From Marsupella aquatica (taxonomy: Eukaryota; Plantae; Marchantiophyta), in contig OZ316899.1 of NCBI GenBank assembly GCA_973895155.1, forward strand, positions 16,085,974 through 16,149,973: a stretch of DNA of 64,000 bases. The letters run 5' to 3'. The position numbers and the translations under genes are program-made. Each line of letters starts with the position of its first letter. The stretch's first letter is position 1. Below the pieces are notes generated by a model. That model saw only the letters and a list, made by a program, of their open reading frames with translations, made no database searches and was not told the DNA's origin. Positions 1 through 55,139 of this stretch are shown in pieces.

Positions 1-840
1 GGCTACGGTGAAGGACGACGCCGCAACCAGCGCCAGGTTCTTATATGAACAGATTTTCACCCGGTTCGGCCCACCCTTAGAATTGGTAAGCGACCGTGGA
101 ACCCACTTCCTCAATGACACTGTAGCCCAGTTTACGGAGCGTTACCTAGTCAAGCACCGCAAGACTACCCTGTATCATCCTAAGGCCAACGGGATGACAG
201 AGAGAGCCAATGGTATCATTGGGAAAATCCTCAACAAGACGGCAGCGGCGCACAAAACGGATTGGGATGATAAGTTGTACGCAGCGGTGTACTTGTATAA
301 TCTCGCTTACAAAACTACTACGAGTCACAGCCGTACTTTCTCGTGTTTGGCCAACATTCGTTGGTACCCGTCGAGTTTGAAGTACACACTCCACGAGTCA
401 GTATTCACGATCGCTTACCCGAACCTGAAAGTTCGTCAGACCGAGCTTATCAAATTGAAGCCCTAGAAGAAGCACGGCTACTAGCAGCTGGACACGCCGT
501 GAAGAATCAGGCAACTTCGAAGAAGCAACACGACAAAGGACTACGGAGGGTCGACGTCGTGGTAGGCGATCTAGTCCTTCTGTACGATAGTAGGTACATG
601 CAGTTTCCAGGGAAGCTTCATACCCGGTGGTTAGGGCCCTTCCTTGTCAATCAGATCTACCATAACGGATCTTTGGAGCTTGCGACGTATGCCGGCGATT
701 TACTCCCCACGCGAATCAGCTACGATCGTGTAAAAAAGTACCACCATCAAGATGACGACGCCGAGAGTGATGTTTGCGAGGACGCTTCACAATTAAGCAG
801 GGAGCTATGTGACGCCGCCGGTACGGCGGTTAATGAGTGA
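1..840 (+). pseudogene. Gypsy family A integrase, C-terminal half (frameshift near 330)
   Basis: ORFs 8-466 and 343-840 give RFGPPLELVSDRGTHF, YHPKANGMTERAN and the GPY/F-type WLGPF; very similar to the integrase at 59940-60743; no chromodomain; frame runs into the LTR. Confidence 0.93.
795..807 (+). other. Polypurine tract of family A element
   Basis: aagcagggagcta directly before TGTGAC at 808; preceded by gcgaggacgcttcaca, which also precedes the family C PPT. Confidence 0.75.
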
Positions 841-1166
841 TTCGGTCTAACTGCGCTCAGCACGCGCGTTAGGAGTGTCTTAGGCCGCTATTATTAGCAT
901 AACGACAGTATTTAGGTAATCATTATGGGTAGGACATCATTAGGCAATAAGGGGGAATTCAGGTTCGGACTGGCGACGGGTCGCTATTCGCACACCCGGG
1001 TTACAAGCGTGGAGGGGCCCCTCCCTCGGGTCCGTATAATGAACTTAAGGAAGCGGCCACTGACACGCGCTGACTCAGACCGGCGGAGTGGCCGGTACAC
1101 CACAAGCGTGAGCGGTTCAGCCTATGGGCGTCGAGGAGATGTCGGGGGATCGGCAAGCCCTCAAGG

Positions 1167-1173
1167 TATAAAA
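1167..1173 (+). promoter_or_regulatory. Candidate TATA box for the LTR-borne ORF of family A
   Basis: TATAAAA ~100 nt upstream of ATG 1275; conserved in solo copy (46624-46630, minus strand). Confidence 0.5.
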
Positions 1174-3286
1174 AGGGAGCCGACCCTTTGGAGTGCACCA
1201 GTCCATCAGTCCACGCGCCAGCTTCGACCCCAGCTCTCTCGTTCGCTCTAAGTTGCCACTACTATCTCCTCTGAATGTCGCACACGATCCTCTCCAGCTC
1301 GGCCATTCGATTCTGGACGCAGTTCCTATCTACCGGAAGGCACTTGGCCGACTCATTGAAACACGCCAACCCGCCCCGATACGAAATCAAACGCGAGTAT
1401 GAGAGAGCCATCCGCCTAGCAGGATGACACCACTACATCCTTAACTTTGACTACCCGTCTCAAAGCGAGCTTTACCGACCAGCAGAGGTATCTGGGTACT
1501 TCTTCAACGGAGACAAATATATCGGTTTCTGGGAAGCATTGCTTCGGCTTCCGGATGAGGTCTTCAATATCCCGGGTACGATCGACTTGCAACGACATCA
1601 CTTCGACCACATCCCTGCTCAGGTTCGGGCTATCATCAACAGCGAGTCCACCACTACCCGTTCGACAAGATCGTCCGCACTTGCTTCGAAGAACTTCTAC
1701 CAGCACCTGCAGAGCTTCATGGGAACTAGACCCGCAACCACCGACGCCAGCCCAGTGGACCCCATACCCGTACCCGTACCAACGCAGACTCAGGCTCAGG
1801 CTTAGCTTCAGTCTCAGCCTCAGCCTAGCCAACCCCCACCGCCGATCGCCCCGCCAGCAGTACAAGTACGCTCCGTCATCAACGTTGTGGACCTTAGCGA
1901 CGACGACGAGGCTACCCCACCCTTGCTCAGGCGGCCCAGAGGAGTAAACACTCAGGGGGCCGACACTGCATCGTCCCCTCCCCATGCTCGGACCCAAGGA
2001 GCGGCTCCAGCAGACAACATGGTGACCGTGGCCGCCCTGGGACCAATACTAACGGCGGTAGTACTACCTATGCCCGATCGAGAGGATGGGGAGGTGTCAC
2101 CTTCCCCGAGCCAGTCACGGGGGAAGAAGAGGAAGGAACCCGCCACTGCATCCGGGTAACCATTGGCCACGGTAGCCGTGGCCAAGGTAACAATGCACCG
2201 CATGGGGGAAAACGTGCATAAGAACATCCTCCATCCCAAGCATGCGGTGTACCTGAAGACTCAGGGATTCGAGCACCTCGCCGCTCTGCCCTGGAACACT
2301 TGCAGGTACTATGGAGAGGACATGACAGAATTCGTCAAGAATTATGATGATACACGTCAGCATATTCGACTGCGGGGAAGGAATATGTCCCTCACGGAAG
2401 AACGGCTCAGGATGATCTTCGGATTACCCGAAGGTGACCATCAAGTCGAATCACGGGCTCCTGGGGGCAAGGGAGCCAAGTACCAATCCTCAAGTTTTCC
2501 CTCGGAAGGAGCAGTGGACAACGGGTTTGTGATGAGGACCTGCCTCATCCTCGAGATAGCTGAGCGACTGGAGTTCCAGAGGTACGCCCTCCACATGATG
2601 GAACCCCGGGGGGAGATCTCCGTCGCCCAGGTTATCCAGGTCGAGAACTATCGACCTAGGAAGTGGGCGTCGTACTTCGCTAAGAAATTCCATGAAGAGA
2701 TGGAGCGGCGAAGGAAGACGCTGTACATTGGCGGGAAGGCGTATTTCGCTAGCCACATCGAGATCATTCTTGAGTGGTACGCTCGGTTTGATCGACAAAC
2801 CCTTCCCCGTGTCAACGTTACAAAGCTGGTCCCAGCTAGGTGGGTTTTTCCGGCCTTGGAGAGACGGCCCCAACCCAAGGCCCGAAGTCCAGCGGACACG
2901 CCAGCTTCACCCACCCCACCTCCACAAGTAGCTGTAGTCGTAACCGAGGAGGTACCGGATGGGTCGGTTGTCGCAACCGTTGATGCGATCCAACAGGCCA
3001 GGCTAAGTACAGAAGTCGGTACGGCGGAGGTCTTACCCGAGCCCGGGTCTCCCAAAGACCCACCGGTGGCTATTCCGGAGAACCGACATTGCTGCAGGAG
3101 GACACTCCAGCCCCTTCCAACATTACGTCCCCAGGGCTGGACGTCACTGCCCCGGCCCCCGCGCGTGTTGACGTCTGCCCGTGCCCAACTCCGGACAGGC
3201 ACAACCTGGACCACTTGGAACTCTTCGTACCGGGTACATTTCTGAACGGTCTTCTGGGAGATTTCTCTCATCAAATTGCCCGGGAT

Positions 3287-6200
3287 TGTGGTGCGTCCCA
3301 TGGCTCCCTAAACCAAGAAACCCCCCAGCTCAAGCCGATTCCCGCAAGTTTCGAGCTTGGCGAGGCCGTTTCCGCGGCTTAGCGGCATGGGACGCTGCTA
3401 ACCTTCTACTACTACTATTAACATTTTACACACATATACTGGACAGATCCTTCATCGGGTCATGAGATACGTAGCCGGCCTAATCTAGGCCTTCCCTCGT
3501 CTTCCCCTCCGTCTTGTTAGGTATGTTTGGATTCCGCCGCCGGAATGATCCCCAATAGGCTTGGTTAAGCCGCTAAGACCTCTCTCAGCTCGACACATCC
3601 AACTCTCACTCCCCTGCTTACTTTCCTTCCTTCTGTTGGTTGATGTGGGCACTCTTCACACAAGTTAATGCGACACACAAATAGCAAAATGACTCCTTCT
3701 GACTGAGCCATACCATGCACTTGCCATACAAACAGTACATCTCATACACAAGCTCTGCGAACTAAGCCGTGAGGCCAACTCTATTCAGCTCTTAGGCATG
3801 ACGAAACATGAATATACACAAGGGTCACTGTATGACTAACCGAGAGCTTCCCTTACTACTTGATCCCAGCCCGGCTGGTGCAAACTAAAAACTTGCTAAA
3901 GAAGAGGCCCTGAGCTCCCCGCTGCCCAGGTACTTATACTGGTAGTGGATCCGCCTAATTCTTTGCAGCGTAAGCCTAATCTACCTAACAGTAATCTACT
4001 TGCCCGGATCTACCTATGTACAGCAAGGCAGGAGCACAAGTGTTGCTCCTACCAGTGGAACCGCAATCCCACTAAGCGAAGTGTCAGGGCCGCTCCTGGT
4101 CCTGATCCTAATCCTAAACTTGGAGATCAGCGCCCGCCCTACCCACTCACGCCTCCTCCCTCCACGTCCGCCCTTCCTAAAAGGAACGGCGCCGTTGCAC
4201 CGTCACGACACCGGTGGTGGATCCTCAATGGACGCCCCCAACGCTTCCTCCTCAGCCACTGCCGTAGGTTCGTTTTCTGACAGATTACCTGCCCTTGACT
4301 GAGTCAACTCTCTATCGGCCTGACTGGGTCCACCATCGGCGTCGGCATTGGCTCGGGAGTCATTCTCGGCTACGGCCTCAGCCTCGGCTATGGTCTCACC
4401 GGCCTGCTCAAGAGGCGGATCTGGGATACCGGCCTCATTACTGAGTAGTTCGGCTTGGGCCGCACCATCCCCACCCTTGATGATAGCGGAATCTATTGCC
4501 GTATTCATGCCGGAGGATGGTGCTGGGTCTACCTCCTTGGTCACCACGGCCTGTGGGGTCGGATTACTCCTTGACCCTGAAGGTTTCCGCTTCTTCTTCC
4601 TTTCTGGTTCGGCAGCTGGTCCTTTCCCCTTCCCACTTACTTCCGGCACTGGTGCAGGTGGCGCGGCTTTTTCTTCGGCCAGTACCACTCCTGGTAACTT
4701 GGTTGCCCCAATTGGAGTTGGGCCTGATGAAGACAAGCACTTAAATACTGCGGCTTGTTTCTTCAGCCGCTCCGTTTGGTTGTCGGCCCGCCGTTGGAGG
4801 TTCTCCATCTTCCTTGTGATTTCCTCCAACTCCTCCTAGGTCTCATCCAGGTCCTTGCGCGCCTCCTCTAGTTCCTTCTGGGCTTCCTCCCGTTCTTGTT
4901 TCAAGGTAGTCCTCTCCTCCCGGGTTGCTCTTAGCTCCTTGTCGAGCTCTGCAATGATGACAGACTCCATCTGGTTCATCTTGGCGTAAGTCTGATCGAG
5001 CATCTCGTCCTTCTCCCTTAGGTCGGCCTTGAAGCTGGCCATCAGGGACGCAAGCTCCTGCTGTAGCGCCATAATCCCTTGATAGGATTTCGCTAACTCG
5101 GCCTCCTTCTGCTCAAGGGCTCCGCGGATTTTCTCGAGCTCCCCCATCAACGCCCATTTCTTTCTTTGGGTCTCCGCCATGGCCCGGCTGTTGGCTGTTA
5201 TGTGGGCCTCCTCTGTATTCTTCAGCTCTCGCTTCCACTTCTCCCTCTCTTTGATTGTATCGGCCAACTCTCCCTGCGTCTGAGTCAGTTTATCCTTGAT
5301 ATTCCGATTATCAGCCTGCGCGGTGTCCAACTGCCCCTGCATGATGTTCAGCTCATGCCGTTTAATCCGCAGTTCATCTTGGGCTTTCTTGGCCGCCCTT
5401 AGGTCTTCAATCTCGGCTTCCATTTTCCTGAGCCGCCGAATGACCTCGTCCTTCTTGCTTCTCTCTAAAGCCACCGCTTCTTCTAATTGGTGCTTCTCCA
5501 ACTGCTCCCTATGGAAAAAGGGTCCTACCTCCAACTCCTCTCCAAAGATGCCGAGCGCAAGTTCCCCACACATCTCACCATACTCCATGGCTCTATTCTT
5601 AGCGTAGGTGGAGTAAGTAGGAGTGATCGGCATCGCCCATCGCGGCCTCTGCTCCCAAGCCGTCTTGCGGATCTCTTCAATCGTGGCTAGAGGTTTGCTT
5701 CCTTTTTCAGCTAGCCGCCTGATGTCCTCCGGCCAATCTCCTCCTGGTAAATCCTTTTCCCTAGCCAGGGCTGCCTCCTCTTCCTACCTGATTTGCTCCT
5801 GAAATTCCTGCGCCGTCTGTTTTATGCCGTCAAAGCTCGGGGGAGCAACATCTGGTGGGGGAGACTCAGGGCTACTCTGCTGGTTGGGGTCCCCTCGTAC
5901 TACCCTTGGAAGCGTGGGGACAAACCGGCCACAGGTCCTTACTCCTGGAACGTGATGGTCCGACCCATAGCCGGAATTATCATGGCTGCAGTCCTCCACT
6001 GCCTCCTGTACTTCTTGGACGTCCGGCTTCTCCCTCTCCTCTTCGTCGGTAGGAGCTTCAGGCAATTCTGCCTCAGATTCAGAGCTTGAGACTCCCACAT
6101 ACATTCGAACACCTGGCTTGGATTCCGGCCTGATTCTCTCCTTGTCTCCAGCAAAGGGGTTTTCTCTTGTGAGCCGGTGTAGGCCTACCTCTGGAGTAGT

Positions 6201-7965
6201 GTCCTGCATTGTTGCCGTTGCCGTTGTCGTTGCCGATGCCGATGCCGATCTCTTTTCTTTCTCCAGTAGTTTCAGCAGACTCTGCATGCCTGGTTGCTGC
6301 ATTGGCAAGTCCTCCGTCCTTGGCCTAAACACCTGCTCGATCGTAGGGCTAACAAGTGGTTGAGGCTTCTCTACTAACGGCCTCGGCGTTGGAGCTTCCT
6401 CGGGTGCACTTACCTGCAGGGGAAGTACTGGGGCAAAAGTCTGACCTCTGGCATACCGGCACAACAGTGGCATGTGATAGCCAAGCCGCGACACGCTCCC
6501 CATGCCGATTACCTGCTGCTCCTCCTTTAAGATCTTCTTCAATTGGTTGAGGAGGTACCCGTTGTAGTCCCGGCTTGGGTCTGGCCTCTCTGCCAGATAG
6601 ACCTGTGCTTTGCCGATCTCTGCCCTCGGCAAGTTACAATGCATGGTCACCCGCAAGAAGTCGATCATCTCTCCTATGTGCGGGTTGGTGCAGGTGTTCC
6701 GGAAGAAGCCATTCTTCGTTGATGGCCCGGGGAACGACCGGAACTCCTTGTCAGGCAAGGTCTTCCTGGTATCAACTTTGGTCTTATTGCCTATCGGCAA
6801 GCCAAATACTTCGGCAATCACTTTGGGAGTAAGATAGAAATCCTTCCCATATATCCTCGTGCAATTGGTCTCGGGTTCCCATGACCCCACGAATTCTAAT
6901 AGGTCTGACTCCGGTACCTCCGGCTTCAGCCATGGTAATCTTACAAAGGCCTCTAAGCCGGATCCGGCCATGAAGCCTTGGTACTTCTTGGTCTGCATGG
7001 CCGTAAAGCATGCATCCTCCTCCCGTGCAAAATGTAGTTGCACCTCCATCGGTAGGGTTGCCGCCCAGCCCTTCCAGGTGTCATCCCTGGTTGGAATGGC
7101 CTTGATGGGATCGACCTCCTCCTCTTCGGCTTCTCCCTGCCTCCTGCTCTACTGCTCGGCTGGCTTCTTTGGTGCCGCCGACCTCATTCTTTTTGCCGGG
7201 GTGGCTTCATCGTTGACGGCTCCCTTCCTCTTCATCTCTGCTGCCGTGGAGGTTTCTCCTAGCACCGTTGCTTGGGTCCACCTTTCCGTGCTACCCTTTA
7301 ATTCCCAGTGTATGTCGTTGCAGTTCTTGATGGCCTCTCGGATGCCGACGACGCTGTCTTTGCAAAACAGAAGATTGTCGAGTTGATTGGAAGTAGGAGT
7401 CCACAAGAACTCGTCCTTGATGAGTTTGCGTCCTAAGAAAGCCGTATTCTGCAGCTCCCACAATCGAGCGAGCTCCTGCCGTTCTCGAGCTGCCCTTTCT
7501 GATTCCTCATCCTCGTAAGTCTTGATGTACTCAGTTGCCCGTTCGAACAGGCATCCCCAGAAATGTGCCGCTTGATTGACGTTGCTCATACCCTCCTTAG
7601 GTCGATCGTCGATATCTACTCTCTCCCCGAGTGCTTCCCTAAGCAGCTGACAGTAGTTGGCCTCCCGTAGTCGTCTGCCTAGTTCATGCTCGCAAATGAG
7701 CCACCATCTCCTACAAGCGCTCCTTACCCCTCTCCTCTTCAGGTCCTTCCTCCCGTTGATCCTTCCTAGCCGCCGACGCTTAACGCGCCCTAACCCTAAT
7801 CGAGTTTTCTCCCCCAGCGTCCTTACCTCCGGCCTCGGCCCGGGTTCCATGGTCGCCCCTAATTGTTTATATTTTCCTTGTTTTGTCCCTATACTAAGGT
7901 GTTTCTAGGGTGCCTTCCTACTTTACCCACTTAACTGGCCGAGTGATTCCTGTCTAGGCATCACA
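3287..7965 (-). mobile_element. Solo LTR-like element, family B (B1, 4679 bp)
   Basis: Termini TGTGGTGC...GCATCACA; 5-bp TSD gggat at 3282-3286 and 7966-7970; empty site visible in copy A2 (~44505); no gag/pol inside. Confidence 0.92.
4203..7850 (-). pseudogene. Family B LTR-borne ORF (~1215 codons, three in-frame TAG stops)
   Basis: ORFs 7149-7850, 5784-7049, 4836-5633 and 4203-4829 are all in one frame; N-domain, conserved domain (LLEFVGSW...LTPKVIAEVFGLPIG), acidic/Pro linker, long coiled coil. Confidence 0.85.
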
Positions 7966-9488
7966 GGGATACCGGGGAGTTCATGGCCCGGAAGGTAGCC
8001 TGTTTCTTCAATCAGGAGTTAGTTGCCGCAGTAAAGGCAGGTCGGGCCCAGTCAGAGGCCCTTCAGAGGATAGAGCGGTACCGGGTGGAGTCCGTCTACT
8101 TAAAGAATGAAGTTGCGGCTCAAGAGGCTGAGCTTCTGCAACTACAACCCAAGGTTGCAGCCGCCGATGATTTGTTAGCAAAGGCGCACGCCCTTACTGC
8201 CCTAGCCGAGCAGGCCAAAGCTGGGAACGAGGCCGAGATTGCACCACTCCGGAACCAGATTGACAGTTTGAAGAATCAAACTGTCATCTGGCAGAAGGAC
8301 CTGGAGGAGGCCGAAGAACGGGCTCAGCGGGACACTACGGAGATAGCCACGCTGCAGGCCGAGGTGGCGCGGCTCCAAACCGAGGCTGAGAAGCAAGACC
8401 AGTTGGCGGGTAAACTGATGAGCGACGCCCAGCAGCTGGAGGAGGCATGTCAGGAGGCAGCAGAGGAGACGGACGCGGCGAGGTGAGAGAACAAATCTCT
8501 GTTGGACCAGGTCCAGCTCCTCAAGGCGGACAATGACAGGCTTCGAAGGCAGCGGGATGGCCGCTCCCATTCGGGCGGCTCTGGCAAGCGTGCCAGGCAT
8601 TAGCAGCGGAGCAAGAATAGATTAGGATTAGGACTAGCTTAGTCAGGCTCTTGGGAGAGGCACCTGCCTTAGGTACAGCAGCGCTGCCATGCTGTCCAGC
8701 CTGCGTAGATTAGGATCTTCTAATAAGACACAGCCATTTTCCGGCCTGACTGTCAGCTTAGTTAGGACCTTAGTCAGTGAATCTTCGGCGAGAGGACACC
8801 CCGTCCCTCGGCCCTTAGTATTTAGTGCACCCCTCGGTAGAGGTAGGGGGGTTTTTAGTCTCAGAGTTGGACATCTGTGGTATGTGCGGGGAGTCCCGGC
8901 CTCTGGGAGTGAAAGAGTACCAAGGGGAGGGGGTAGGACTAAGCTCGCCGGGGGAGTGCAGAGCCGGGCTCCGTTGTAGTATACTCTCTCGGCCTTGAAC
9001 CTAATCATTCCGGAGCTATCGGGTCAACCAAGTGTATGCACATGTCCCCTATGTAGTAAAATCCTTTCCCATTATTTCCTTGTAAATCGAGATTGTATGC
9101 TTGTGCGCGTGTATGTGTGTGTGAATCTCGTGTATAGGTGACAACGCCGGGCCGAACGCACTACCTAAACGAGGTGCAGCTTGTGGGGATGTGGTTGCGA
9201 GCACGGGTTGAGGACCTGTATCATGGAATCCGGATCGAAGGCGGACCACACAAAGGCTTAGAAGTCCTTAAGCCGGGGTCGATCCTGTTATCGACTAAGG
9301 TACGTTCCGGCGGCGGAACACAAACCATACCTAGGAGATGTCCGTATCTAACAGTAGGCGCACTTAGCGCTAGTTTACGTGAATTAGGTGCATTACGCGC
9401 TTCCCTCCCTGCCCGAACCCTCAGATTTATGAGGGATGTGCCCGTCTAAGCTGAAGTCTGAGTTAAGGCCGAAGCCGACGACGTGACA

Positions 9489-10409
9489 GATGACTGAGAA
9501 ATGATTCTGAGAGGATTCTGAGAGCGAACCGGAAGTAGGAATAGAGGTGTTGGCCGGTTGAACCGGATTCCCTCCTAAAGTTAACTTACGGCGCTTGGGA
9601 GGTTCAACAACTTGTACCTTTGCTTCCTCTTCGTCCTCCTCTGTGTCCTCTACCTTAACAATCTCTGGATCTGGGACTCCATAAAGGACATAACTGTTCT
9701 TTGTCCCCAAAAGATTCTTCTCCTGTTTGAACAGGACTCCTGCTTGGGCATACAAATGAATCACATAGGAAGACAAGGGGGTGGCCGATTTCCCATTGAG
9801 ATTAGTTGCCAGCTTCTGTATCACATCATACAGGATGGTAGCCCAAGAGATAGTCTTCCCCTTGTAGAGGGCAGCAATGATAGTGCTCCCTACTCTCTGG
9901 ATGACTCGTTTTGGTTTCTCTGGGTATAACAGGGGAACCAGGAAAGCCAATACCCTTCTCAAGTCTCCATCTATGCACTGATTAACACTCCATCCTTCTT
10001 TCTCGTCCATCTTTCCTGCAAAGTAATCTATGGTGAGGTTCTCTCCTTGGGGAAGTAGACCAGAGCCCTCTGTATGCACTTGGTAAGCTTTGCCAATAGC
10101 CTCTTTGGTCCAAAGCTTAGGTTGGGCTCTGATGGTATTAGAAAACTCACTTGGGACTTCTCCAGTGAGTATCTCTCGGATAACATCTTCACTCTGCCAT
10201 GCCCAGGTCATCAGAAGTAGGTTGTGGCATCCCATCCTCTCTAGATCAATCCGCAACCTCTCCTTCTCTTCTGGTCCGGTTGGTAGTACAAGTCTTAGAG
10301 GCTTCAAAGCAATAGGTAAATCCTTCCTCTTAGACCTTCGAACCTCGCTCTTGACAGGGGTAGTGTCCGCCTTCGCCTTCTCAGCAGATTGGGGTCTTTG
10401 GTTCCTCAT
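9489..10409 (-). pseudogene. Family D LTR-borne ORF, N-terminal ~307 aa (truncated by A insertion)
   Basis: Matches 51330-52577 up to ...QNHFSVI; the rest of the called ORF (9393-9488) reads into LTR A. Confidence 0.85.
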
Positions 10410-11090
10410 GGTGGCTCAACCGGTTCTCGTTAAGGTGAAATCCGGTTCAGAGCGGAAGCCGGTTCAGAGCGGAAGCCGGTTCAGAGCGGAAGCCGGGTCA
10501 AACGTCTGGCCTTCCTTCTCCAAGATCGAAGCCTATTTACTTCCCCAGCCTTCCCTCCCTCTACAGGAGTAGGCTGCCACCTTACACGATTCAGTCAATT
10601 CTCTCCTATACCATGCACTCACAGAGTTATCAAGAATGGTCCTCTCATCCGGACCAAAGACCCTCAACCAGACGGAAGAGATTCCTCACACTACAGCATC
10701 GTCGCATCACTATTCGCTCGGGAGCTCAAGACTTACTTCGTTCAGCCTTGAGAGGTGTGAGGAGAGGTTCAGCCGGTTTTGGTCTCAGATTTGGCTATAG
10801 GCTGATCCAAGACTTATGGTTTAATGGTTAAGCCGCTCCTTGCATTGAGATCCTCCGGTGGAATGGACCGGACTTAGATCATTAGGGAAACCGGTTCCAT
10901 GGGTTGGGGAGGTTAAAACGGCTTTCTTCTGTCGAACCGGCCATCTCAACCAAGCAACTTTTCCGGTTAGCACCTTAAAGTGCTCATAGGAGGCTAATAG
11001 GTCTAAAAGGTCATAAGAGTTAGTGTTTCCAAGGGTTAAAATTTTAAAATTTCCCTTTTTCTCCTTTTACCAAATAAACATCATCTCACA
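9489..11090 (-). mobile_element. Family D LTR, 5' part (D1), interrupted by the family A element
   Basis: Near-identical to 51657-53250; terminus ...CATCATCTCACA at 11090. Confidence 0.9.
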
Positions 11091-11756
11091 CTTTGCGTAT
11101 TTGTTGGGCTCGGCTTAGGTGATCATTGGCCGCTGTACTCATGGCGTCCTCATGTTTCTCCTGCATGGCCTCCAGCCGATCAAGTAGCTTTTCATGCTTC
11201 CCTTGGGCTGCGGCCAAGGCCTTCTCGCTCTGAGTGGTCTGGTCTTTAGCCGCCTTCCTAAGCCTATCGACTTGCCGATTAAGACCCTGTACCTCTTCCT
11301 TTGCATCGGGTAACTCCAGCTGCACCTTTGTCAATTTCTCTTTAATCTGCTGGTTATCCAATTGGTAGTTTTCCAATTGGTTGTTCGCCACCTCTAATTC
11401 CTGCTGCTTAGCCAAGAGATCCTGTTGTGCTTGTTGATCCACCCTTGATTTAGCCACCTTTGCTTCCATGCCGCGAAGCCAAGTGATCACTTCCTCCGTA
11501 TCTACAAATGCCTTTTTGTGAATTCCCCACAATCGCGCAAGCTCCGCTCGTTCTCTAGCTGCGCGCTCCGGCTCAACATCTTCATACGTAGGTACAGCTG
11601 CCTTGCTTCTTCAAGCAAACAGCCCCAAAACTTCCCTGCCTGATTCACCGTGTTCATTCCACCAAATGCCAAGAACTTGCGCAATCTCCCAATCCACCAC
11701 ATGCACTTGAATGACAGTCGCTCCTCAATGTCGAGACCGTGTACACGAGAATGCAA
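11091..11756 (-). pseudogene. Family E LTR-borne ORF fragment (B-type N-domain fused to coiled coil)
   Basis: GMNTVNQAGKFWGCLLE vs family B GMSNVNQAAHFWGCLFE; frameshift near 11585; coiled coil 11091-11532. Confidence 0.75.
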
Positions 11757-11994
11757 AATGGCAGAGTATTGGTCTCCTCACTCCGAAGCCGCCACTTAGT
11801 GGTCTTTGTGATCAAGCATGGATTAGGTCATAACTCAAATCCCGCCGGATCTCAACCATTGGATCCTTTCCCTTATCATCTAACACGTAGTAATCGGCAT
11901 CGGTCTTAATTGTTACCTTATACTCTCTATCTATCCTTATTTAGCCATTATTTTAGGCTTAATTATTACTTCGTAATCCTGGCAAGGCATCACA
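11091..11994 (-). mobile_element. Family E LTR 5' part (B-related), interrupted by D1
   Basis: Terminus ...GGCATCACA at 11994, as in family B; carries an ORF sharing the B N-domain. Confidence 0.75.
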
Positions 11995-13547
11995 AGGACT
12001 GTTGGGCTGGTTGGGTTTTATCTGTTGTCAGCCTCTGTTCCAGAACCTCCTCTTGTGCCCTTGCCTACAAGGGAAGTACTAGGGCAAAGATCTGACTCCT
12101 GGCATACCGGCACAACAACGGGATGTGATAGCCAAGCTGGAACACGCTTCCCTGGCCGATCACCTATTGTTCCTCCTTCAAGATCTTCTTTAGTTAGGTG
12201 ATGAGGTACCCGTTGTAGTCCCGGCTTGGGTCTGGCCTCTCCGCTAGGTAGACCTGTGCCTTGCCAATCTCTGGTCTTGGCAAGTTGCAGTGCATGGTTA
12301 CCCGCAAGAAATCGATCATCTCACCAATGTGCGGGTTGGTGTAGATATTCCAAAAGAAGTCATTCTTCGTTGATGGCCCTGGGAACAATCTGAACTCCTT
12401 GTCTGGCAAGGTCTTTCGGGTATCTATTTTGGTCTTATTGCCCATCGGCAAGTCAAACACTTTGGCAATCACCTGGGGAGTGAGATAGAAATCCTTCCCA
12501 TACACCCTTGTGGAATTTGTCTCGGGATCCCATGATCCCACAAATTCCAATAAGTCAGAATCCGGCACCCCAGGCTTCAGCCACGGTAATTTCACAAAGG
12601 CTTCCAAGCCGGATCCGGCCATGAAGCCTTGGTACTTTTGAGTCTGCATAGTCGTAAAGCATGCATCTTCTCTCGTGCAAAGTATAATTGCACTTCCTCT
12701 AGGAGGGTTGACGCCCAGCCCCTCCAGGTGTCATCCCTCGTTGGAACGACATTGATTGGGTCGACCTCCTCTTCTTCGGCTTCCTTGGTGCCGCCAACCT
12801 TGTTCTCTTTGCGGGGGTGGCCTCTTTGTTGTTTGGCCCTTTCCTCTTCATGGCGGCTGTTGTGGATATTTCTCCAAGCACGGTTGCCTTTGTCCACACC
12901 TCCGTGCTACCCTTTAGGTCCCAATGTACGTCGTTGCAACGGTTGATGGCTTCTTGGATGCCGACAATTCTGTTCTCACAAAACAGAAGGTTGTCGAGCT
13001 GATTGGCAGTAGGAGTCCACAAGAACTCAGCCTTGATGAGCTCCCCTCCAAGGAAGGTAGACTTCTGCAGTTCCCATAGTCGAGCAAGCTCCTGCTGTTC
13101 TCGTGCTGCCCTTTCCGATTCTTCATCCTCGTAGGTCCCAATGTAACTACTCAGTTGCCCGGTCAAACAGGCATCCCCAAAAATGAGTAGCTTGATTGAC
13201 GTTGCTCATGCCCTCCTTGAGTTGATACTTGGTATCTTCTCCCGCCCAGAGTGCTTGCCTAAGCAGCTGACAGTAGTTGGCTTCTCGCAATCCTCTGTTT
13301 GGTTTGTGCTTGCAAATGAGCCGCCATTCCTTGTGATCGGTCCTTAACCCCCCTTGCCTGGTCTCCCTTCCCGTTGGTTACCCCTAGCCGCTGGCACTTA
13401 GCGCGCCCTAACCCTAATTGCGTTCCCTGCCGTGGCGTCCTTACTTCCGGCCTCAGCTCGGGTTCCATATTTTCCTTGTTTTGTTACTACACTAATATGT
13501 TTTCAGGGTACACTCCTGGTTTTACCATTTAGCGGCTAGGCATCACA
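11995..13547 (-). mobile_element. Family B LTR 5' part (B2, diverged, ORF frameshifted), interrupted by E
   Basis: Colinear with ~6370-7965; ORF pieces 13259-13468, 12699-13166, 12194-12649 match B1; terminus CTAGGCATCACA at 13547. Confidence 0.88.
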
Positions 13548-18150: not shown

Positions 18151-18241
18151 GATATGGGAAGCATGATGAAAATGAAATACATGCTTAAATACAAATTATA
18201 TGAAGACATTGATACCATACTCATGCCAACTTTATTCGCGT

Positions 18242-42985: not shown

Positions 42986-45900
42986 TGTCACGTCATCAGC
43001 CTTGACCTTAACTCGGGCTTCAGCTTTAAACGGGCACATCCTTCGTAAATATGAGGGTTCGGGCAGGGAGGGAAGAACGTAATGCACCTAATTCACATAA
43101 ACTAGCGCTAAGTGCGCCTACTGTTAGATACGTACATCTCCTAGGTATGGTTTGTGTTCCGCCGTCGGAACGTACCTTAGTCGATAACAGGATCGACCCC
43201 GGCTTAAGGACTTCTAAGCCTTTGTGTTTTCCGCCTTTGATCCGGATTCAATGATACAGGTCCTCAACCCGTGCTCGCAACCACATACCCGCAAGCTGCA
43301 CCCCGTGCACGACTCGGGTAGTGCGTTTGGCCCGGCGTTGTCACCTATACACGAGATTCACACACATATACACGCGCACAAGCATACAATCTCGATTTAC
43401 ACGAAGGAAATAATGGGAAAGGATTTTACTACATAGGGGACATATGCGGACACTTGGTTGACCCGACAGCTCCGGAATGAACAGGTTCAAGGCCGAGGGA
43501 GTACACTACAACGGAGCCCGGCTCCGCACTCGCCCGACGAGCTTAGTCCTACCCCCTCCCCTTGGTACTCTTTCACTCCTAGAGGTCGGGACTCCCCGCA
43601 CATACCATGGATGTCCAACTCTGAGACTAAAAACCGCCCCTGCCTCTACCAAGGGGTGCACTAAATACTAAGGGCCGGGGAACGAAGTGTCCTCCCGCCC
43701 GAAGATTTGCTGACTTAGGTCCTAACTAATCTGACTGTCAGGCCGAAAAACGGCTGTGTCTTATTAGAAGATCCTAATCTACGCAGGCTGGACAGCATGG
43801 CAGTGCTGCGGTAACTAAGGCAGGTGCCTGTCCCAATAGCCTGACTTAGCTATTCCTAACCCTATTCTATTCCTGCTCCGCCGCTAATGCCTGGCACGCT
43901 TGCCAGAGCCGCCCGAGTGGGAGCGGCCATCCCGCTGCTTATGAAGTCTGTCGTTGTCTGCCTTGAGGAGCTGGACTTGGTCCAGCAGAGATTCGTTCTC
44001 TCGCTTCGCCGCGTCTGTCTCCTCCGTTGCCTCCTCCAGTTGCTGGGCGTCGCTCGTCAGCTTGCCCGCCAGCTGGTCCTGCTTCTCGGCTTCGGTTTGG
44101 AGCCATGCCACTTTGGCCTGTAGCGTGGCTATCTTCGTAGTGTCCCGCTGGGCCCGTTCTTCGGCCTCCTCCAGGTCCTTCTGCCAGATGACAGTTTGAT
44201 TCTTCAAACTGTCAATCTGGTTCCGGAGTCGTGCAATCTCAGCCTGGTTCCCAACTTTGGCCTGCTCGGCTAGGGCGGTAAGGGCGTGCGCCTTTGCTAA
44301 CAAATCATCGGCGGCTGCAACTTTGGGTCGTAGTTGCAGAAGCTCATCCTCTTGAGCCGCAACTTCGTTCTTTAAGTATACGGGCTCCACCCGGTACCGC
44401 TCTATCCTTTGAAGGGCCTCTGACTGGGCCCGACCTACCTTTACTGCGGCAACTAACTCCTGATTGAAGAAATAGGCTACCTTCCCGGCCATGAACTCCC
44501 CGGTATCCCGGGCAATTTGATGAGAGAAATCTCCCAGAAGCCCGTTCAGAAATGTACCCGATATGAAGAGTTCCGGGTGGTCCAGGTTGTGCCTGTCCGG
44601 AGTTGGGCACGGGCAGACGTCAACATGCGCGGGGGGCAGGGCAGTGATATCCAGCCCTGGGGACATAATGTTGGAAGGGGCTGGAGTGTCCTCCTGCAGC
44701 AATGTCCGGTTTTCCGGAATAGCCACCGGTGGGTCTTTGGGAGACCCGGGCTCGAGTAAGACCTCCGCTCTACCGACTTTGGTACTTAGCCCGGCCTGTT
44801 GGATTGCATCTACGGTTGCGATAACCGACCCATCCGGTACCTCCTCGGTTACGACTACAGCTACTTGTGGGGGTGGGGTGGGTGAAGCTTGCGTGTCCGC
44901 TGGACTTCGGGCCTCGGGTTGGGGCCGTCTCTCCAAGGCCGGGAAAACCCACCTAGCTGGGACCAGCTTTGTAACGTTGACACGAGGAAGGGTTCGTCGA
45001 TCAAACCGAGCGTACCATTCAAGAATGATCTCGATGTGGCTAGCGAAGTACGCCTTCCCGCCAATGTACAGCGTCTTCCTTGGCCGCTCCATCTCTTCAT
45101 GGAATTTCTTAGCGAAGTACGACGCCCACTTCCTAGGTCGATAGTTCTCGACCTGGATAACCTGGGCGGCGGAGATCTCCCCCCGGGGTTCCATCATGTG
45201 GAGGGCGTACCTTTGGAACTCCAGTCGCTCAGCTATCTCGGGGATGAGGCAGGTCCTCATCACGAACCCGTTGTCCATTGCTCCCTTTGAGGGAAAACTC
45301 GAGGATGGTACTTGGCTCCCTTGCCCCCGGGAGCCTGTGATTCGACTCGATGGTCACCAGCGGGTAATCCAAAGATCATCTTGAGCCGTTCTTCCGTGAG
45401 GGACATATTCCTTCCCCGCAGCCGAGTATGTTGATGTGCGTCATCATAATTCTTGACGAACTCCGTCATGTCCTCCCCGTAGTACCTGCAAGTGTTCCAG
45501 GGGAGAGAGGCGAGGTGCTCGAATCCCTGAGTCTTCAGGTACACCTCATGCTTGGGATGGAGGATGTTCTTATGCACATTTTCCCCCATGCGGTGCATTG
45601 TCACCTTGGCCACGGCTACCGTGGCCAATGGTAACCCGGATGCAGTGGCGGGTTCCTTCCTCTTCTTCCCCCGTGACTGGCTCGGGGAAGGTGACACCTC
45701 CCCATCCTCTCGATCGGGGATAGGTAGTGCTACCGCCGTTAGTATTGGTCCCGGGGCGGCCACGGTCACCGTGTTGTCTGCTGGAGCCGCTCCTTGGGTC
45801 CGAGCATGGGGAGGGGATGATGTAGTGTCGGCCCCCTGAGTGTTTTCTCCTCTGGGCCGCCTGAGCAAGGGTGGGGTAGCCTCGTCGTCATCGCTAAGGT

Positions 45901-46989
45901 CCACAGCGTTGATGACGGAGCGTACTTGTACTGCTGGCGGGGCGATCGGTGGTGGGGGTTGGCTAGGCTGAGGCTGAGACTGAGGCTGAAGCTGAGCCTG
46001 AGCCTGAGTCTACGTTGGTGTGGGTATGGGTATGGGGTCCACTGGGCTGGTGCCGGCGGTTGCGGGTCTAGTTCCCATGAAGCTCTGCAGGTGCTGGTAG
46101 AAGTTCTCCGAAGCAAGTGCGGACAACCTTGTCGAACGTGTAGTGCTGGACTCGCTATTGATGATAGCCCGAACCTGAGCAGGGATGTGGTCAAAGTGAT
46201 GTCGTTTCAAGTCGATCGTACCCGGGATATTGAAGACCTTGTCCGGAAGCCGAAGCAATGCTTCCCAGAAACCGATGTATTTGTCTCCGTTGAAGAAGTA
46301 CCCAGATACCTCTGCTGGTCGGTAAAGCTCGCTCTGAGACGGGTAGTCAAAGTTAAGGATGTAGTGGTGTCGTCCTGCTAGGCGGATGGCTCTCTCGTAC
46401 TTGCGTTCGATTTTGTATCGGCGCGGGTTGGCATGTTTCAATGAGTCGGCCAAATGTCTTCCGGTAGATAGAAACTGCGTCCAAAATCGAATGGCCGAAC
46501 TGGAGAGGATCGTGTACGACATTCAGAGGAGATAGTAGTGGCGACTAAGAGAGAACGAGAGAGCTGGGGTCGAAGCTGGCGCGTGGACTGATGGACTGGT
46601 GCACTACAAAGGGTTGGCTCCCTTTTTATACCTTGAGGGCTTGTCGATCCCCCGACATCTCCTTGTTGCCTATAGGCTGAGCCGTTCACGCTTGTAGTGT
46701 ACCGGCCACTCTGCCGGTCTGAGTCACCACGTGTCAGTGGATGCCTCCCAAAGTTTGTTATACGGACCCGAGGGAGGGGCCCCTCCACGCTTGTAACCCG
46801 GGCGTGCGAATGGCGACGCGCCGCCAGCCCGAACATGAATTCCCCTTATTGACTAATGATTTCCTACTCATAATGGCTACCTAATTACTATCGTTATGCT
46901 AATCATAGCGGCCTAAGATACCCGTAACACGCATGCTAAGCACGGTTTAGACTGAATTACTCATTACTCGTCGTACCGGCGGCGTCACA
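42986..46989 (-). mobile_element. Solo LTR, family A (A2, 4004 bp)
   Basis: TGT...ACA termini; TSD caagg at 42981-42985 and 46990-46994; homologous end to end to LTR 808-9488. Confidence 0.95.
43884..46522 (-). pseudogene. Family A LTR-borne ORF, copy A2 (~880 codons; one TAG at 46010, one frameshift near 45305)
   Basis: ORFs 46010-46522 and 45260-45904 are in frame; 43884-45278 follows a 1-nt deletion relative to A1. Confidence 0.88.
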
Positions 46990-49736
46990 CAAGGAGTTTT
47001 ACTTGCAATTTCAATCATGGGCCTAGAGATTGGGAGTCATCAGTATCTCAGATAAACATACAAAATTGGCACCATAACCAACTTACAAGGTTGGCAGTGA
47101 TTTCAGAGAGACTTGCCAACTGTCAAAAAAGCCAAGTCTGTAAAGACACAATATCCGACCTTATCAGGGTATGTGACTGTGTCATTGACAATTTTCTCAG
47201 TGAGTAACAAACCAGGGTCCAAAACATCAACCTACAAACATTTTCAAAAATATAGCTAGCAACCTCGCTAGCAAAACTGATCAGCCAATATCTGGTGTTC
47301 TATAAATAAATTAAAGAGCACTCCATATGGAGTGTAAATAGAATCTCTCCCTACCAGCACACAAAAATGTCTACTTCCAATGATACTTACATATATATTA
47401 AAAACCAATGAAAACCTTAAATTAAAACCAAACCTCACTCTAAAGTGGACAATATCAAACCTCAACTCCCCTTTGGATCAGATTGGAAACTTCAGCGACA
47501 ATTAAAATAAGTCAACTACTTGACTACATCCAAAGTCTCTAGGTTCAAATGGTAAATATTCTTGTAACCCAAAGAATATGTTTGCAAGACATGTAAGGCT
47601 TTCCATGTGAATGTTGCTTATAGAAATCCTCATAGGAGCAACATTGGTGTGACACGGGCAACGTGTCACTTAACCAAACGCAGGTCCTAGATTAGGACTT
47701 ATACGGTCATTAGGACCGTAGCCATAGTGTAGAATAGCACAAATAGCCGTCTTTGCCATTATGAATAGATTAGGAGTAGGTTAGTTGACCAAATGATTAC
47801 AAATTAAGGAAGAGGATTATTACGCTTGACCGAAGTACGGTGGCGGCGGTGGAGTAAAAATCCATTAGGAGGATCACGCTTGGACCGAGACACCGACTTC
47901 AGCTCATTATCAACGACCAAAATGGCCTTGCCCTCTCACAATCGAGCTCACTCTGGCACCTCCATAAGAGCGGAGTCGATGGCGCTATGGGCCATTTTCT
48001 CATTTCTACCTTTCAAAATTCGCGGACGCTGCCATTCACTCTCGCCTTTTCTTGAATCAAGCTAACCTTTACGAGGAGATTATCGAGGGATGAGAGCGGA
48101 TTGTGGCAAGATTTAGTCAGGGCAAGTAAGGACGCCACCAGCAAGCGGACCGGCCGGGCGGGAACGCGGACTCGACGAACCAGACTACAAAGGTTAGTAT
48201 GACCCTTACAGCCTTGGGATTTTGGACCTTGTTTGGCGAGGTTGGTGCTAAGTTCTCCGAGACTTACTGGTACTCTTGCCCCGAGAAAGCCGCTCACGAA
48301 CAAAGATATGCAAAGCTGGTGACCAAGGTAGCAAAGGTTAACTGTGAGAAGAAGACAGCCGTCACCAAGGATTCCAGTTACAACGAGCTATGGGATTACA
48401 TCACCGTGCTATATATCAGTGAGAAAGGGTTCAGATCGGTGGCAGAGGCAATTCTTGAAGTTCTCGCGAAGTTTCTTTAGGCTGAGGGGCAGCCAGAGAC
48501 TGACTCCAACGGAGTTTGACAAGATTCCAGGATACATCAACCAGCAGATTACAGCCAAGAAGCGTGAAGAAGACATCAGCAGACAACGGGAAGTGGCGCG
48601 TAACCTTACGTTCCTCGGGGAAAGCTCCAACGCTTTCAACTGGGATATGGCTACCCTGACACCACCCCCAGCCCCTCAGCCGATGACCACCGGTGTACCA
48701 CCAAACCGGTCCCAAGTCCGTCCCGTGAACAACACCGAGTGTTCCTCGGGTTCCGAGCGTGCTAGTCCGCAGCTTGAGCAGCGTTCTTGGAAGCGGTCAA
48801 GGACGACGCCGGCCCCCGAATCGACAACAAAAACTAACGCCACCCTTGTACCTGCCCCGGCGAATCCCCCGACCAACTAGACCCAACGGCCCGCGGATAA
48901 TCCAAAGTCTAACTTATTACAGGTAATCCGCGTCCCTGAGGTAGTCTGGATCGTGATCAAGAAACTCGACCATGCGGACTATCTCAAGGAGCATCAGTTG
49001 GAGCAGTTTGCTCACTTGCTATGGAGACCGTGCGCAGCCGGGCCAAAGGAGATTTGTGAGTTCATCTCCAATTTTGACATTGACGCATCGACCACCAAGG
49101 TTTTAGGACAAACCTTATCACTCACGGAGCATCGGCTAGCACAGATCTTCTGCCTGCCAACTGGGCCGGTGTCAGTTGAACTCCAAATTCGGGATAAGGA
49201 GTATACACCTCGGCACTTCAAACCCAAGGGCAAGACAGACAACGGATACAAGCAGGGGTCATGCACCAACTTAATCTGTATGGAGCGGCTTAACTTCATA
49301 CGGACTACCCTACACATGATTGAGCCACGATCCGAGATCTCCCTCTGCACGATCGTACAGGTGGAACAGTACAAACGGCAGAACTGGGCCCAATTCTTTT
49401 ACTGGAGGTTCTCGGGGGAGCTTAAGCGGGCCCAGGGAGGTATGGCTATCGGGGGGAAAACTTACCTAGGAAGTCATATCGCCATCATCCTCGCCTGGTA
49501 CAAGGCACGGCGGGAGGCCAGGGGAAAGAATATGGCCACGTGAGCCCCGACTAATGTCACCCCCACTTCGGAGGAGGATACCCCGAGTGAGCGGACTACC
49601 GCGCCTCGGGCAAACCCCAAGCCGGAGGCCCCGACTAATACTCCGTCACCTCCCCGGGTTGAAATTCCGCCGCCCCCTTCCGTCAAGCCTCCGCTATCCT
49701 CGGTACAACCACCTCCAATCCCTCCACCACCTGAAG

Positions 49737-52700
49737 TGTAGAGTAGGGTTTAGAGTAAGAATAACTATTCTTCTCTTTAATAGCCTAGATTCGTTCCCGT
49801 TAAGAGCTATTGAGACCTAAAAGATTGTAATATTATACTTTGAGTACTTTTGAGTAACATACTCAGGTTACAAGCCTTTTTAACATGCTCAGGTTTATGG
49901 AAGGAATTTTATGATACTTCCATGAAAGGTATGACGTTTGTATCGTCCATAGTGCAATCAAAAAGGGGTAAAAAGTGTTAAACAAAACCAAAAGCCAGCG
50001 GCGTGAAAACTGATAGAAGGCGAGTTATAGATGGAAATACACCTTATCACTACATAGTAACTCATGACCAGCGGTAGTACATTAAGAATCATCGGTGTAA
50101 AAACTCATGTAAAACTGACGCCTACATATCCTCTTCAAACCAGCCATCTTTAGAAAATTATAAAAGATTAGCATAAGGTAGCCCGTATTGATTTTCTGAC
50201 CTATGTCAAAGCAAGGTGGTACTAATCACTCCGAACCAACTTATTCTTTTATTCAATCCATCAGATTGTTCTTTTGGATCTATGCAATTTGTGGAATTCT
50301 AGTGGTGAATTTGTATCAGCTCCTTATTGAATACAAGAGCTCTATAGTCAACACGAATCAATAGGCTTTTGCATGATCTCAAGCATGCGTTTCCAGTCAG
50401 CCTACAGGTCAACCAAGCATTACTAGTCACATCAAACAAATTTTTCTAGTAAGGGATAATCACACACTAAGATTGAATCACAAACCATAGATTACCAAAG
50501 ATTACTAAAATAGACTTCTCATTGATTAATTACTTCAAAGAGAAGGAGACTTAAAGTTGAAAGCTAATTTCATGAAAGTCATATTAAGTCTGAGGTTCAA
50601 GGAAGAATCTCTCCCTTATATATAAGAGAGATCCGCTTGAAAAACTACATGAAAAGACATGCCTTTTCATTATGTAAAAACTAATAAGGTTAACTAGATA
50701 AAAATAATTATACTGTGTGAAAGAGGAGGTCATATCACTTCCTTCCTTTCCTACAAAACATGGAAAATGGTCGGAACAAAGGCGGAAATCAAATTTCCGG
50801 TTCAACCTCCTTTTAAATATAAATTCCGGTTGAACCTGTTTTTACAGAATCCGGTTCATCCGTCTTGGTGTTTAACTATGGCTTCAGGAATTTCTGGCTC
50901 TTCAGGAATCTCTGGAGTGATATTGGGAGTAGGTGCTTGGCTTTGGAGGGGTTCTATAACATAGGTCACTCCTGTGGAGGTAGTAACAATGTTGCCAGGG
51001 GGAACCGGGTTGGTAGGATACTTGCTCATGAGGGAAGTCCAATCGAAAGGTCCGGGAGTGGTGGTACGAATGGTCCCTGAGGAAGAGGTGAAATCAGGAG
51101 CAGTAGTATCAAGAGTGGTAGGTTCTCCTGATAGAGGGGATGGAGAATACTGAACTGGTGTCTCCCCATCATCCTTAGCCCAGATCTGGTGTAACTCATT
51201 CATTTGGCCCAAAATCTCCTTCATTGCATTCAGGCAGTCCTCAAGTTTATCTCCATAGTCTTGAGAGATACGAATGACAGTAGCAAGGCAAGTAGGATTG
51301 GGTACTTTTACAAAGTACTCTCGAAAGAGTTATGTCTGGACCAAATCTCTACCTCTGGTGTTCAGGAAAGGGTCCAAACGATCCACTAAATCTTCCAGAC
51401 TCTCAATGGCTTCTTCCTCCTTCTTACTCCTCTGTCTTCTCTCTTTCAGCTGGTTTTCACAATCTGTGAGTCTAACAGACTTCTCCTTGAGGTCCTTTTC
51501 CATTCTCTCCACCTTCTCCTTGTTGCCAGCAGTCTGTATTACAGGCTCAAAGTTTGCTACTAATTCTGAGACTGGAACACCTGCTACTCGAGCCATCTTG
51601 GCCAGGTTCTGTTCCATGATACCCATCTTCACTTGTATTGCCTCCATCTCTCGCTGGATGACTGAGAAATGATTCTGAGAGGATTCTGAGAGCGAACCGG
51701 AAGTAGGAATAGAGGTGCTGGCCGGTTGAACCGGATTCCCTCCTAAAGTTAACTTACGGCGCTTGGGAGGTTCAACAACTTGTACCTCTGCTTCCTCTTC
51801 ATCCTCTTCTGTGTCCTCTACCTTAACAATCTCTGGATCTGGGACTCCATAAAGGACATAACTGTTCTTTGTCCCCAAAAGATTCTTCTCCTGTTTGAAC
51901 AGGACTCCTGCTTGGGCATACAAATGAATCACGTAGGAAGACAAGGGGGTGGCCGATTTCCCATTGAGATTAGTTGCCAGCTTCTGTATCACATCATACA
52001 GGATGGTAGCCCAAGAAATAGTCTTCCCCTTGTAGAGGGCAGCAATGATAGTGCTCCCTACTCTCTGGATGACTTGTTTTGGTTTCTCTGGGTATAACAG
52101 GGGAACCTGGAAAGCCAATACCCTTCTCAAGTCTCCATCTATGCACTGATTAACACTCCATCCTTCTTTATCGTCCATCTTTCTTGCAAAGTATTCTATG
52201 GTGAGGTTCTCTCCTCGGGGAAGTAGACCAGAGCCATCTGTACGCACTTGGTAAGCTTTGCCAATAGCCTCTTTGGTCCAAAGCTTAGGTTGGGCTCTGA
52301 TGGTATTAGAAAACTCACTTGGGGCTTCTCCAGTGAGCATCTCTTGGATAACATCTTCACTCTGCCATGCCCAGGTCATCAAAAGTAGGTTGTGGCATCC
52401 CATCCTCTCTAGATCAATCCGCAACCTCTCCTTCTCTTCTGGTCCGGTTGGTAGTACAGGCCTTAGAGGCTTCAAAGCAATAGGTAAATCCTTCCTCTTA
52501 GACCGTTGAACCTCGCTTTTGACAGGGGTAGTGTCCGCCTTCGCCTTCTCAGCAGATTGGGGTCTCTGGTTCCTCATGGTGGCTCAACCGGTTCTCGTTA
52601 AGGTGAAATCCGGTTCAGAGCGGAAGCCGGTTCAGAGCGGAAGCCGGTTCAAACGTCTGGCCTTCCTTCTCCAAGATCGAAGCCTATTTACTTCCCCAGC

Positions 52701-55059: not shown

Positions 55060-55139
55060 GGCACTCATTTCACCTTACGAGTGGAGCCGTGTAGTGAGCT
55101 ATTAACCTTCGATTTTGTCCTTGACGCGTAGCAAGGGGC

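Follow-up and report, generated by a model that had tools for sequence, protein, structure and literature searches.

Do the long open reading frames (ORFs) that lie inside LTRs at this locus belong to the elements carrying them, and what might their proteins do? Plant LTRs are described as non-coding (PMC13192763), and whether proteins made by LTR elements influence the methylation of those same elements has been named as an uninvestigated question (PMC12844716). Extra ORFs are documented in non-chromovirus gypsy elements and include Transposase_32 (PF20167), ATHILA ORF-1 (PF03078) and, in Ogre, the plant mobile domain (PMD) (PMC6317226, PMC7264820, PMC11728184). We analyzed a stretch of 64,000 nucleotides from the liverwort Marsupella aquatica (contig OZ316899.1, positions 16,085,974 to 16,149,973; hereafter the window), for which a preliminary description had proposed that ORFs in the LTRs of four families, A, B, C and D, encode one conserved domain.

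Four LTR Families Carry an ORF inside the LTR

The features of the window are collected in Table I. Element C has two repeats flanking gag, protease (PR), reverse transcriptase (RT), RNase H and integrase, as Ty3/gypsy LTRs do; in family A a repeat follows the integrase, and a solo copy (A2) carries a target duplication and is skipped exactly by a contig joint. The LTR status of B and D rests on TG..CA ends and duplications, their internal regions lying outside this window. The LTRs holding the ORFs measure 4.0 kb in A (808-3286 plus 7971-9488 for the 3' LTR), 3.9 kb in C (3859 bp for the 5' LTR), 4.7 kb in B and 3.5 kb in D, and in each unit a single sense frame takes up between half and three quarters of the LTR. 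Self-comparison and junctions placed all four ORFs inside LTRs, those of A and C also being downstream of the integrase of a chromodomain-less Ty3/gypsy element. The remainder of the family-A element, upstream of position 1, is beyond the window edge.

All eight ORF copies in the window were damaged by stops, frameshifts, insertions or truncation: B1 holds a single reading frame of ~1,200 codons with three in-frame TAG stops, the A2 ORF (46522-43884) has one stop and one frameshift, and the D2 ORF (52577-50856) has one in-frame stop. Three ORF-bearing solo units (A2, B1 and D2) are bounded by 5-bp target duplications. Junctions showed B1 nested inside A and D2 inside C, and truncations point to further nesting, of A into D1 and of D1 into B2. 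In public runs, a contig joint omitted exactly 4009 bp at A2 (4 of 4 runs) and joints omitted 3519 bp at D2 (1 of 2 runs); summed contig depth was ~100-fold higher inside the A2 edges, a ratio that is not a copy number. Within B2, a second stretch like the N-terminal part of B precedes the coiled coil (11500-11660(-); 64% DNA identity to 7433-7592), which suggests an internal duplication or recombination.

The LTR pair of element C differs by a K2P distance of 0.05-0.07. A Pfam/domain scan of its pol region detected neither a chromodomain nor an extra RNase H, and the RT carries what we take to be an Athila-like motif; the best named RT matches came from Calypogeia fissa (72%). A primer-binding-site-like TGGCGCTAGA word, presumably a tRNA match, was seen 17 bp beyond the point where the C 5' LTR appears to end (55026-55062), and the gap contains TACGGCGACCGG. 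The corresponding distance in REXdb is 0-5 bp, versus 17 bp in element C. The gag region (55125-56400) has zinc knuckles, and no capsid-domain Pfam match was obtained in its long frame; the capsid domain has possibly been deleted. The 5-bp target duplications are consistent with Athila rather than with Phygy/Selgy, for which 4 bp is given (PMC6317226).

Elsewhere in the window we observed a Helitron remnant with Rep and Pif1 helicase domains (16279-21309) adjoining 35-bp and 18/55/92-bp tandem arrays, a Ty1/copia element with 0.36-kb LTRs that are 95% identical (21731-27923(-)) and, amid the transposon-dense DNA, an intron-containing host gene for an SBP-box (SPL) transcription factor (32819-35676(+)).

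Table I. Features of the ORF-bearing LTR families, in window coordinates
Feature	Position	Strand	Evidence or remark
Family-A Ty3/gypsy integrase end	1..760	+	Pfam rve E 2.1e-5; 70% DNA identity with element C integrase
Short purine-rich tract abutting family-A LTR	795..807	+	Likely plus-strand primer site
Family-A 3' LTR, left part	808..3286	+	Begins TGTGAC; 93% identical to solo LTR 42986-46989
TATA-like word ~110 bp upstream of family-A LTR-ORF start codon	1167..1173	+	Sequence; putative promoter function
N-terminal helical domain of A LTR-ORF, copy 1	1275..1670	+	In-frame stop 1425-1427
Family-A core domain, copy 1	2202..2801	+	~190 aa; in open frame 2160-3245
Family-B solo LTR copy B1, 4679 bp	3287..7965	-	TG..CA; target duplication GGGAT; within A LTR
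Family-B core domain, copy 1	6435..7022	-	dN/dS 0.10 versus copy 2
Family-A 3' LTR, right part	7971..9488	+	ORF coiled-coil end (putative), ~0.9 kb non-coding, terminus GTGACA
Family-D LTR copy D1, 5' 1.6 kb	9489..11090	-	Cut where element A ends; core domain 9684-10283
17-bp tandem (x3.5) in D1	10442-10500
Diverged family-B LTR B2, 5' part	11091..13547	-	Cut at D; core domain 12098-12670; 78% DNA identity to B1
Family-A solo LTR copy A2, 4004 bp	42986..46989	-	Target duplication CCTTG; core domain 45003-45598
Element C 5' LTR, left part	47648..49736	+	Core domain 48932-49519; 93-95% identical to 3' LTR
Family-D solo unit D2, 3514 bp	49737..53250	-	TG..CA; target duplication TGAAG; core domain 51852-52451; within C 5' LTR
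AACCGG cluster including 17-bp tandem (x2.5), just upstream of D2 start codon	52586..52651	-	Putative role in recognition
Element C 5' LTR, right part	53256..55025	+	Right end placed by CA motif only
Element C gag (zinc knuckle)-protease-RT-RNase H-integrase	55125..60743	+	Stop-broken; integrase frame extends to LTR edge
Element C 3' LTR	60701..64000	+	Continues past window edge; N-terminal domain 61254-61625, core domain 61982-62569

The Core Domains of A, B, C and D Are Homologous

The motifs quoted in the preliminary description proved real, and each family has them twice in the window, the first motif lying at 2250(+) and 45541(-) in A, 48980(+) and 62030(+) in C, 6974(-) and 12625(-) in B, and 52412(-) and 10244(-) in D. 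Smith-Waterman comparisons, with significance taken from 1000 shuffles, indicated that A, B and C share one domain, with z scores of 62-73 (A-C), 21-31 (A-B) and 20-32 (C-B); none of the 1000 shuffles reached any of the A-C, A-B or C-B scores. Amino-acid identity was 38-41% between A and C, 28% between A and B and 23% between C and B. Third codon positions were near random across families (0.32-0.34 identical) although the protein is conserved.

Pairwise Smith-Waterman comparison of D with A, B or C was not significant (z -0.9 to 0.7), and a five-sequence A/B/C profile did not detect D. A 71-row profile of database relatives recovered it as a distant member, with E values of 8.3e-8 and 1e-6, the next value among the 807 window ORFs being 1.6. 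After removal of the Transposase_32-type rows, the remaining 48-row profile still gave 2.9e-7 and 4.4e-6 (best reversed-ORF control, 0.87), and HHalign gave 94% and E 1.4e-7 over 142 columns. These comparisons confirmed the homology of the four core domains, D being joined only via the deeper profile.

The low DNA similarity between families was also borne out. Sensitive blastn of the six family pairs, limited to the ORF-bearing parts, returned only A-C matches: 220 bp at 58.6% inside the domain and an extra 29 bp in the coiled-coil part.

Anatomy of the LTR Proteins and Selection on Them

The LTR proteins of A and C run in the order N-terminal helical domain, low-complexity linker, core, Pro/acidic linker and putative coiled-coil region; in D the core is nearly at the N terminus. 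The helical domain is a second conserved unit of ~125 aa, present in A (46130-46522(-) in A2; other positions in Table I), in C and weakly in B (E 5e-4), and it was also found in 10 of 105 relatives, including Calypogeia and unnamed ones. It had no Pfam match. A model built from the A2 copy reached a pLDDT of 82; the fold search on it gave a best Z of 4.9, to generic helical bundles, and Foldseek returned nothing, so that no clear structural match was obtained. As for the linker and coiled coil proposed to follow each core domain, the Pro/acidic linker is present, and the coiled coil rests on weak matches to Pfam coiled-coil families and on composition. No transmembrane helix had been evident at first, and in 12 of 12 ORF pieces the top 19-residue Kyte-Doolittle mean was indeed at most 1.45. 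Basic clusters occur in the A, B and D proteins.

The ratio dN/dS between the B1 and B2 domains was 0.10 (0.05-0.17) and that of the upstream part of B was 0.21 (0.11-0.35). In A, we obtained 0.18 (0.04-0.79) for the C-terminal half and 0.20 (0.09-0.41) for the coiled coil; C gave 0.40 (0.18-0.99). The value for D, 1.06 (0.30-4.37), comes from only 14 changes and is uninformative. Two sets of values were discarded: that for the N-terminal half of A, which was misframed and had 8 codons, and those for A against C, in which dS was saturated. Because the two C LTRs should drift neutrally and CG decay may inflate dS, it is the B ratio that carries weight.

Relatives of the Core Domain

When 1.84 billion proteins were scanned by HMMER with the A/B/C profile, 85 matched at E <= 0.001. 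Twenty were looked up: four are from Calypogeia fissa, one from Riccia sorocarpa and one from Orobanche minor, and 14 have no species name. The C and D domains, used as queries in word-index protein searches, gave no match, a result of little weight since the full HMMER scan did find relatives. PDB sequence searches returned neither a core-domain match nor a VANC21 match, only coiled-coil noise.

The domain had been likened to the group of PMD, Transposase_32 and Athila ORF1. Transposase_32 was detected in 7 of the 85 relatives (best E 1.6e-7, 31.8 bits), in every case below the 45-bit Pfam cut-off, and the same seven rows matched a profile built without them at E values of 3e-20 to 5e-4; the best window ORF against PF20167 was D1, at E 0.12. 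By these comparisons, the core domain is a remote relative of Transposase_32 and not a member of it. The other two names found no counterpart at the sequence level: Plant mobile domain (PF10536) and ATHILA ORF-1 (PF03078) matched none of 43 window ORFs and none of the 85 relatives at E <= 0.01. DUF1985 and DUF287 likewise had no Pfam match in window ORFs, and a DUF1985 link through the Orobanche protein P0061 was rejected, being a sub-threshold match, in 1 of 85 relatives, with an E value that became 7.5 once the profile was improved. An ESM Atlas query with relative P0007 returned a Transposase_32 cluster (0.84) and a cluster in which 17% of members are ATHILA (0.83), which we regard as a lead only.

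In the gene models of two of the relatives, P0071 (Riccia sorocarpa) and P0082, the core domain is joined to a DDE_Tnp_4 fragment; either the annotation may have fused the two or a transposon of another class may carry the domain. In a domain tree made by a quick method from 52 rows of at least 150 aa, D, Riccia and the Transposase_32-type rows were on long branches.

Predicted Fold of the Family-A Core

The core was folded for family A only, from an alignment of 76 rows, and the AlphaFold model reached a pLDDT of 95.3 and a pTM of 0.90. Among 48,161 PDB representatives, the only chain at Z >= 5 was 9lnk, VANC21 with its target DNA (Z 7.8, rmsd 4.2, 189 of 200 residues aligned over model positions 1-200, 12% identity); the next chain had Z 2.7. 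Foldseek also ranked VANC21 first, at a non-significant E of 0.73 with a TMq of 0.49, the other rows listed being at 0.17 or below. The match is isolated and domain-wide, yet its Z lies below 8, the threshold of the tool for more than a common arrangement, and we hold the predicted VANC21 fold with moderate confidence. Against a viral structure library, none of 71 matches reached E <= 0.001 for the A core.

VANC is reported to resemble MAIN structurally, and in models both VANC and the Athila domain oligomerize via coiled coils (PMC13547354). The LTR proteins, in which a globular domain is paired with a putative coiled coil, have a layout parallel to that of these two. The VANC21 match and this reported likeness together point to a link with PMD, by an indirect route only; the three names first proposed for the domain would thus be tied together indirectly, through VANC, MAIN and Athila likeness. 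MAIN, a host silencing factor, has the same fold (PMC13547354), and the fold therefore leaves the direction of any effect unfixed. As to the suggested role, an anti-silencing or chromatin function rather than Env, the rejection of Env is upheld by hydropathy, the viral library and the VANC21 match; the VANC21 match lends some support to the anti-silencing part, which stays a putative role. By its predicted fold the core domain would act in a VANC-like manner, yet it is not classed as a member of VANC, Transposase_32 or PMD.

Candidate Target Words and Traces of Methylation

VANC binds short motifs that stand in tandem in non-coding DNA of the element encoding it (PMC5735166, PMC10398659). The sense strand of D contains 12 copies of AACCGG, where 1.6 would be expected (corrected p 4.5e-4). 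Counting both strands, the 3.5 kb of D hold 18 copies; the density in the other three families is 0.2-1.0 per kb. Sixteen of the 72 CG sites of D fall within AACCGG, and 11 of those 16 are non-coding, lying in clusters upstream of the start codon and downstream of the stop codon; the copy number of a 17-bp tandem is 2.5 in D2 versus 3.5 in D1. AACCGG is a candidate self-recognition motif of D, on counts from one or two copies per family.

In the non-coding parts of A, B and C, neither a target word nor a tandem array was convincing. CACTAC was considered for A (8 in A2, p 0.009) and rejected, being mostly coding and with 5 remaining in A1; a richness of TTAGG in A/B/C non-coding parts was not significant. 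Observed CG in the 5' non-coding parts reached 0.99 (A) and 0.97 (C) of the expected value, compared with 0.39-0.69 for five other regions of the window, a weak hint. In each of the five pair comparisons made for A, C and D, C-to-T change amounted to 12-21% at CG, 7-14% at CHG and 1-5% at CHH, and this excess at CG and CHG over CHH indicates that the window copies were likely methylated.

Discussion

The reading that we prefer, with a probability of about 0.5, is that the core domain is part of an LTR-borne gene encoding a nuclear, family-specific DNA-binding factor that would counter host silencing of its own family. The confinement of the ORFs to TG..CA units, the homology of their domains, dN/dS below 1 in A, B and C, and the lack of a membrane helix support an LTR gene. 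Several results weigh against this reading: the structural match stays below Z 8, no sequence link to VANC21 was found, A, B and C have no convincing target word, the folded family is A and the motif-bearing one is D, whose dN/dS is uninformative, and the window copies are all broken or cut and were likely methylated.

A plus-strand primer site sets the left edge of an LTR. Plus-strand priming directly behind the integrase would turn an Athila-type 3' extra ORF into LTR sequence, probably U3; with the primer site in that position, the former 3' ORF would be copied to both ends and retained in solo LTRs. A promoter at the 5' end of the LTR, where A has its TATA-like word, could then drive the ORF in both LTRs of an element as well as in solo LTRs. 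The protein would oligomerize via its putative coiled coil and bind short words in the non-coding LTR parts of its own family, AACCGG being the candidate in D, and the bound protein would lower methylation at LTRs of that family, both in cis and in trans.

That the frames are passengers, or open by chance and functionless for the element, would agree with every window copy being broken. This reading is largely refuted by dN/dS of 0.10-0.40 in A, B and C and by a protein conserved between families whose third codon positions are near random; 85 relatives and a confident predicted fold also stand against it, and we consider it very improbable. An Env-like, movement or particle protein is the classic proposal for Athila 3' ORFs, and the sense orientation 3' of pol, the long putative coiled coil and the weak Transposase_32 link would suit it, as the sunflower Athila 3' ORF with Transposase_32 has a membrane helix (PMC11728184). 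None of the 12 pieces here has a hydrophobic stretch above 1.45, however, and VANC21, the best fold match, is a nuclear protein that binds DNA, which makes such a role improbable.

Two other alternatives carry more weight, although we think both unlikely. The likelier of them is an adaptor to chromatin or a host protein, either similar to MAIN/PMD or tethering the integration complex, that favors insertion or persistence in transposon-rich chromatin without family-specific demethylation. Three of the four families lack a target word, MAIN is reported with the same fold (PMC13547354), and the junctions are consistent with four nested insertions among ORF-bearing LTR families; the window is transposon-dense, however, so nesting among families is expected, while VANC21 was matched in its DNA-bound structure and D has a private motif. 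The protein might instead transactivate the promoter of its own LTR in a sequence-specific way, by a direct effect on transcription that leaves DNA methylation largely unchanged. The location in the LTR beside the putative promoter, the motif clusters on both sides of the D ORF and the methylation-type decay in all copies would fit this; against it, activity has been tested for just one structural relative, and that protein works via loss of methylation (PMC5735166, PMC10398659).

The closest counterpart of the factor that we favor is VANC of the Arabidopsis VANDAL (Mutator-like) DNA transposons (9lnk/9lnj), likewise a transposon-encoded accessory gene, with which the LTR proteins share the predicted core fold and a putative coiled coil (PMC5735166, PMC10398659, PMC13547354); the short CG-containing candidate word of D, in non-coding parts and partly tandem, may also parallel VANC targets (PMC5735166). 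Unlike VANC, the genes described here are carried not by VANDAL/MuDR elements but by LTR retrotransposons, inside the LTR (Ty3/gypsy in A and C). Their core is 12% identical with no sequence-level link, motif arrays are absent in A, B and C, and an extra N-terminal domain is present in A, C and weakly B. With the 3' extra ORFs of Athila/OTA elements they share the sense ORF downstream of pol, the chromodomain-less gypsy context and the 5-bp target duplication (PMC6317226, PMC7264820). Those papers, however, describe internal ORFs, between pol and the 3' LTR, whereas the window ORFs are inside the LTR, duplicated and able to survive in solo LTRs. They differ from the sunflower Athila ORF (PMC11728184) in having no membrane helix and a Transposase_32 similarity below the Pfam cut-off.

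A protein gene in the LTR is known from sag of MMTV-type betaretroviruses, for which U3 promoters are described and which lies mostly in solo LTRs (PMC4667437); protein and host are unrelated to those described here, and the window ORFs occupy half to three quarters of LTRs of 3.5-4.7 kb. The likeness to MAIN/MAIL1 (PF10536) is indirect, via the reported VANC likeness (PMC13547354); those are host silencing factors, and none of the 85 relatives matches PF10536. Our survey of the literature, which covered few subscription journals, found no plant LTR-internal VANC-fold gene, and the parts seen of PMC13468544 and PMC12885004 do not mention one; REXdb supplementary files 1 and 3 may list such elements. 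Extra ORFs of non-chromovirus gypsy elements and a U3 gene in MMTV were thus known. What appears new is a gene of predicted VANC fold within plant LTRs, in four diverged families, together with the common second, N-terminal domain (A, C and weakly B) and the candidate target motif of D.

Extra ORFs are common in plant gypsy elements, and a predicted VANC21 fold gives a testable hypothesis of what they may do. Four diverged families in one genome form a natural specificity matrix, in which each protein can be set against each LTR, and for D a candidate word is at hand. Such LTR genes are annotated as host "unnamed proteins," as the Calypogeia fissa gene models among the looked-up relatives illustrate. 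With the gene inside the LTR, solo-LTR formation, the usual means by which a host disposes of retrotransposons, would leave it in place.

More tentatively than the reading preferred above, we propose a liverwort retrotransposon clade whose LTR is a self-contained anti-silencing cassette of promoter, VANC-fold gene and family-specific words, each family having its own protein-motif pair and solo LTRs de-silencing their relatives in trans. VANC has been called dicot-specific and considered to have arisen from MAIN in dicots (PMC13547354). If the proposal is true, it would challenge that origin, as the VANC fold would have been present in land-plant transposons long before the dicot VANDALs.
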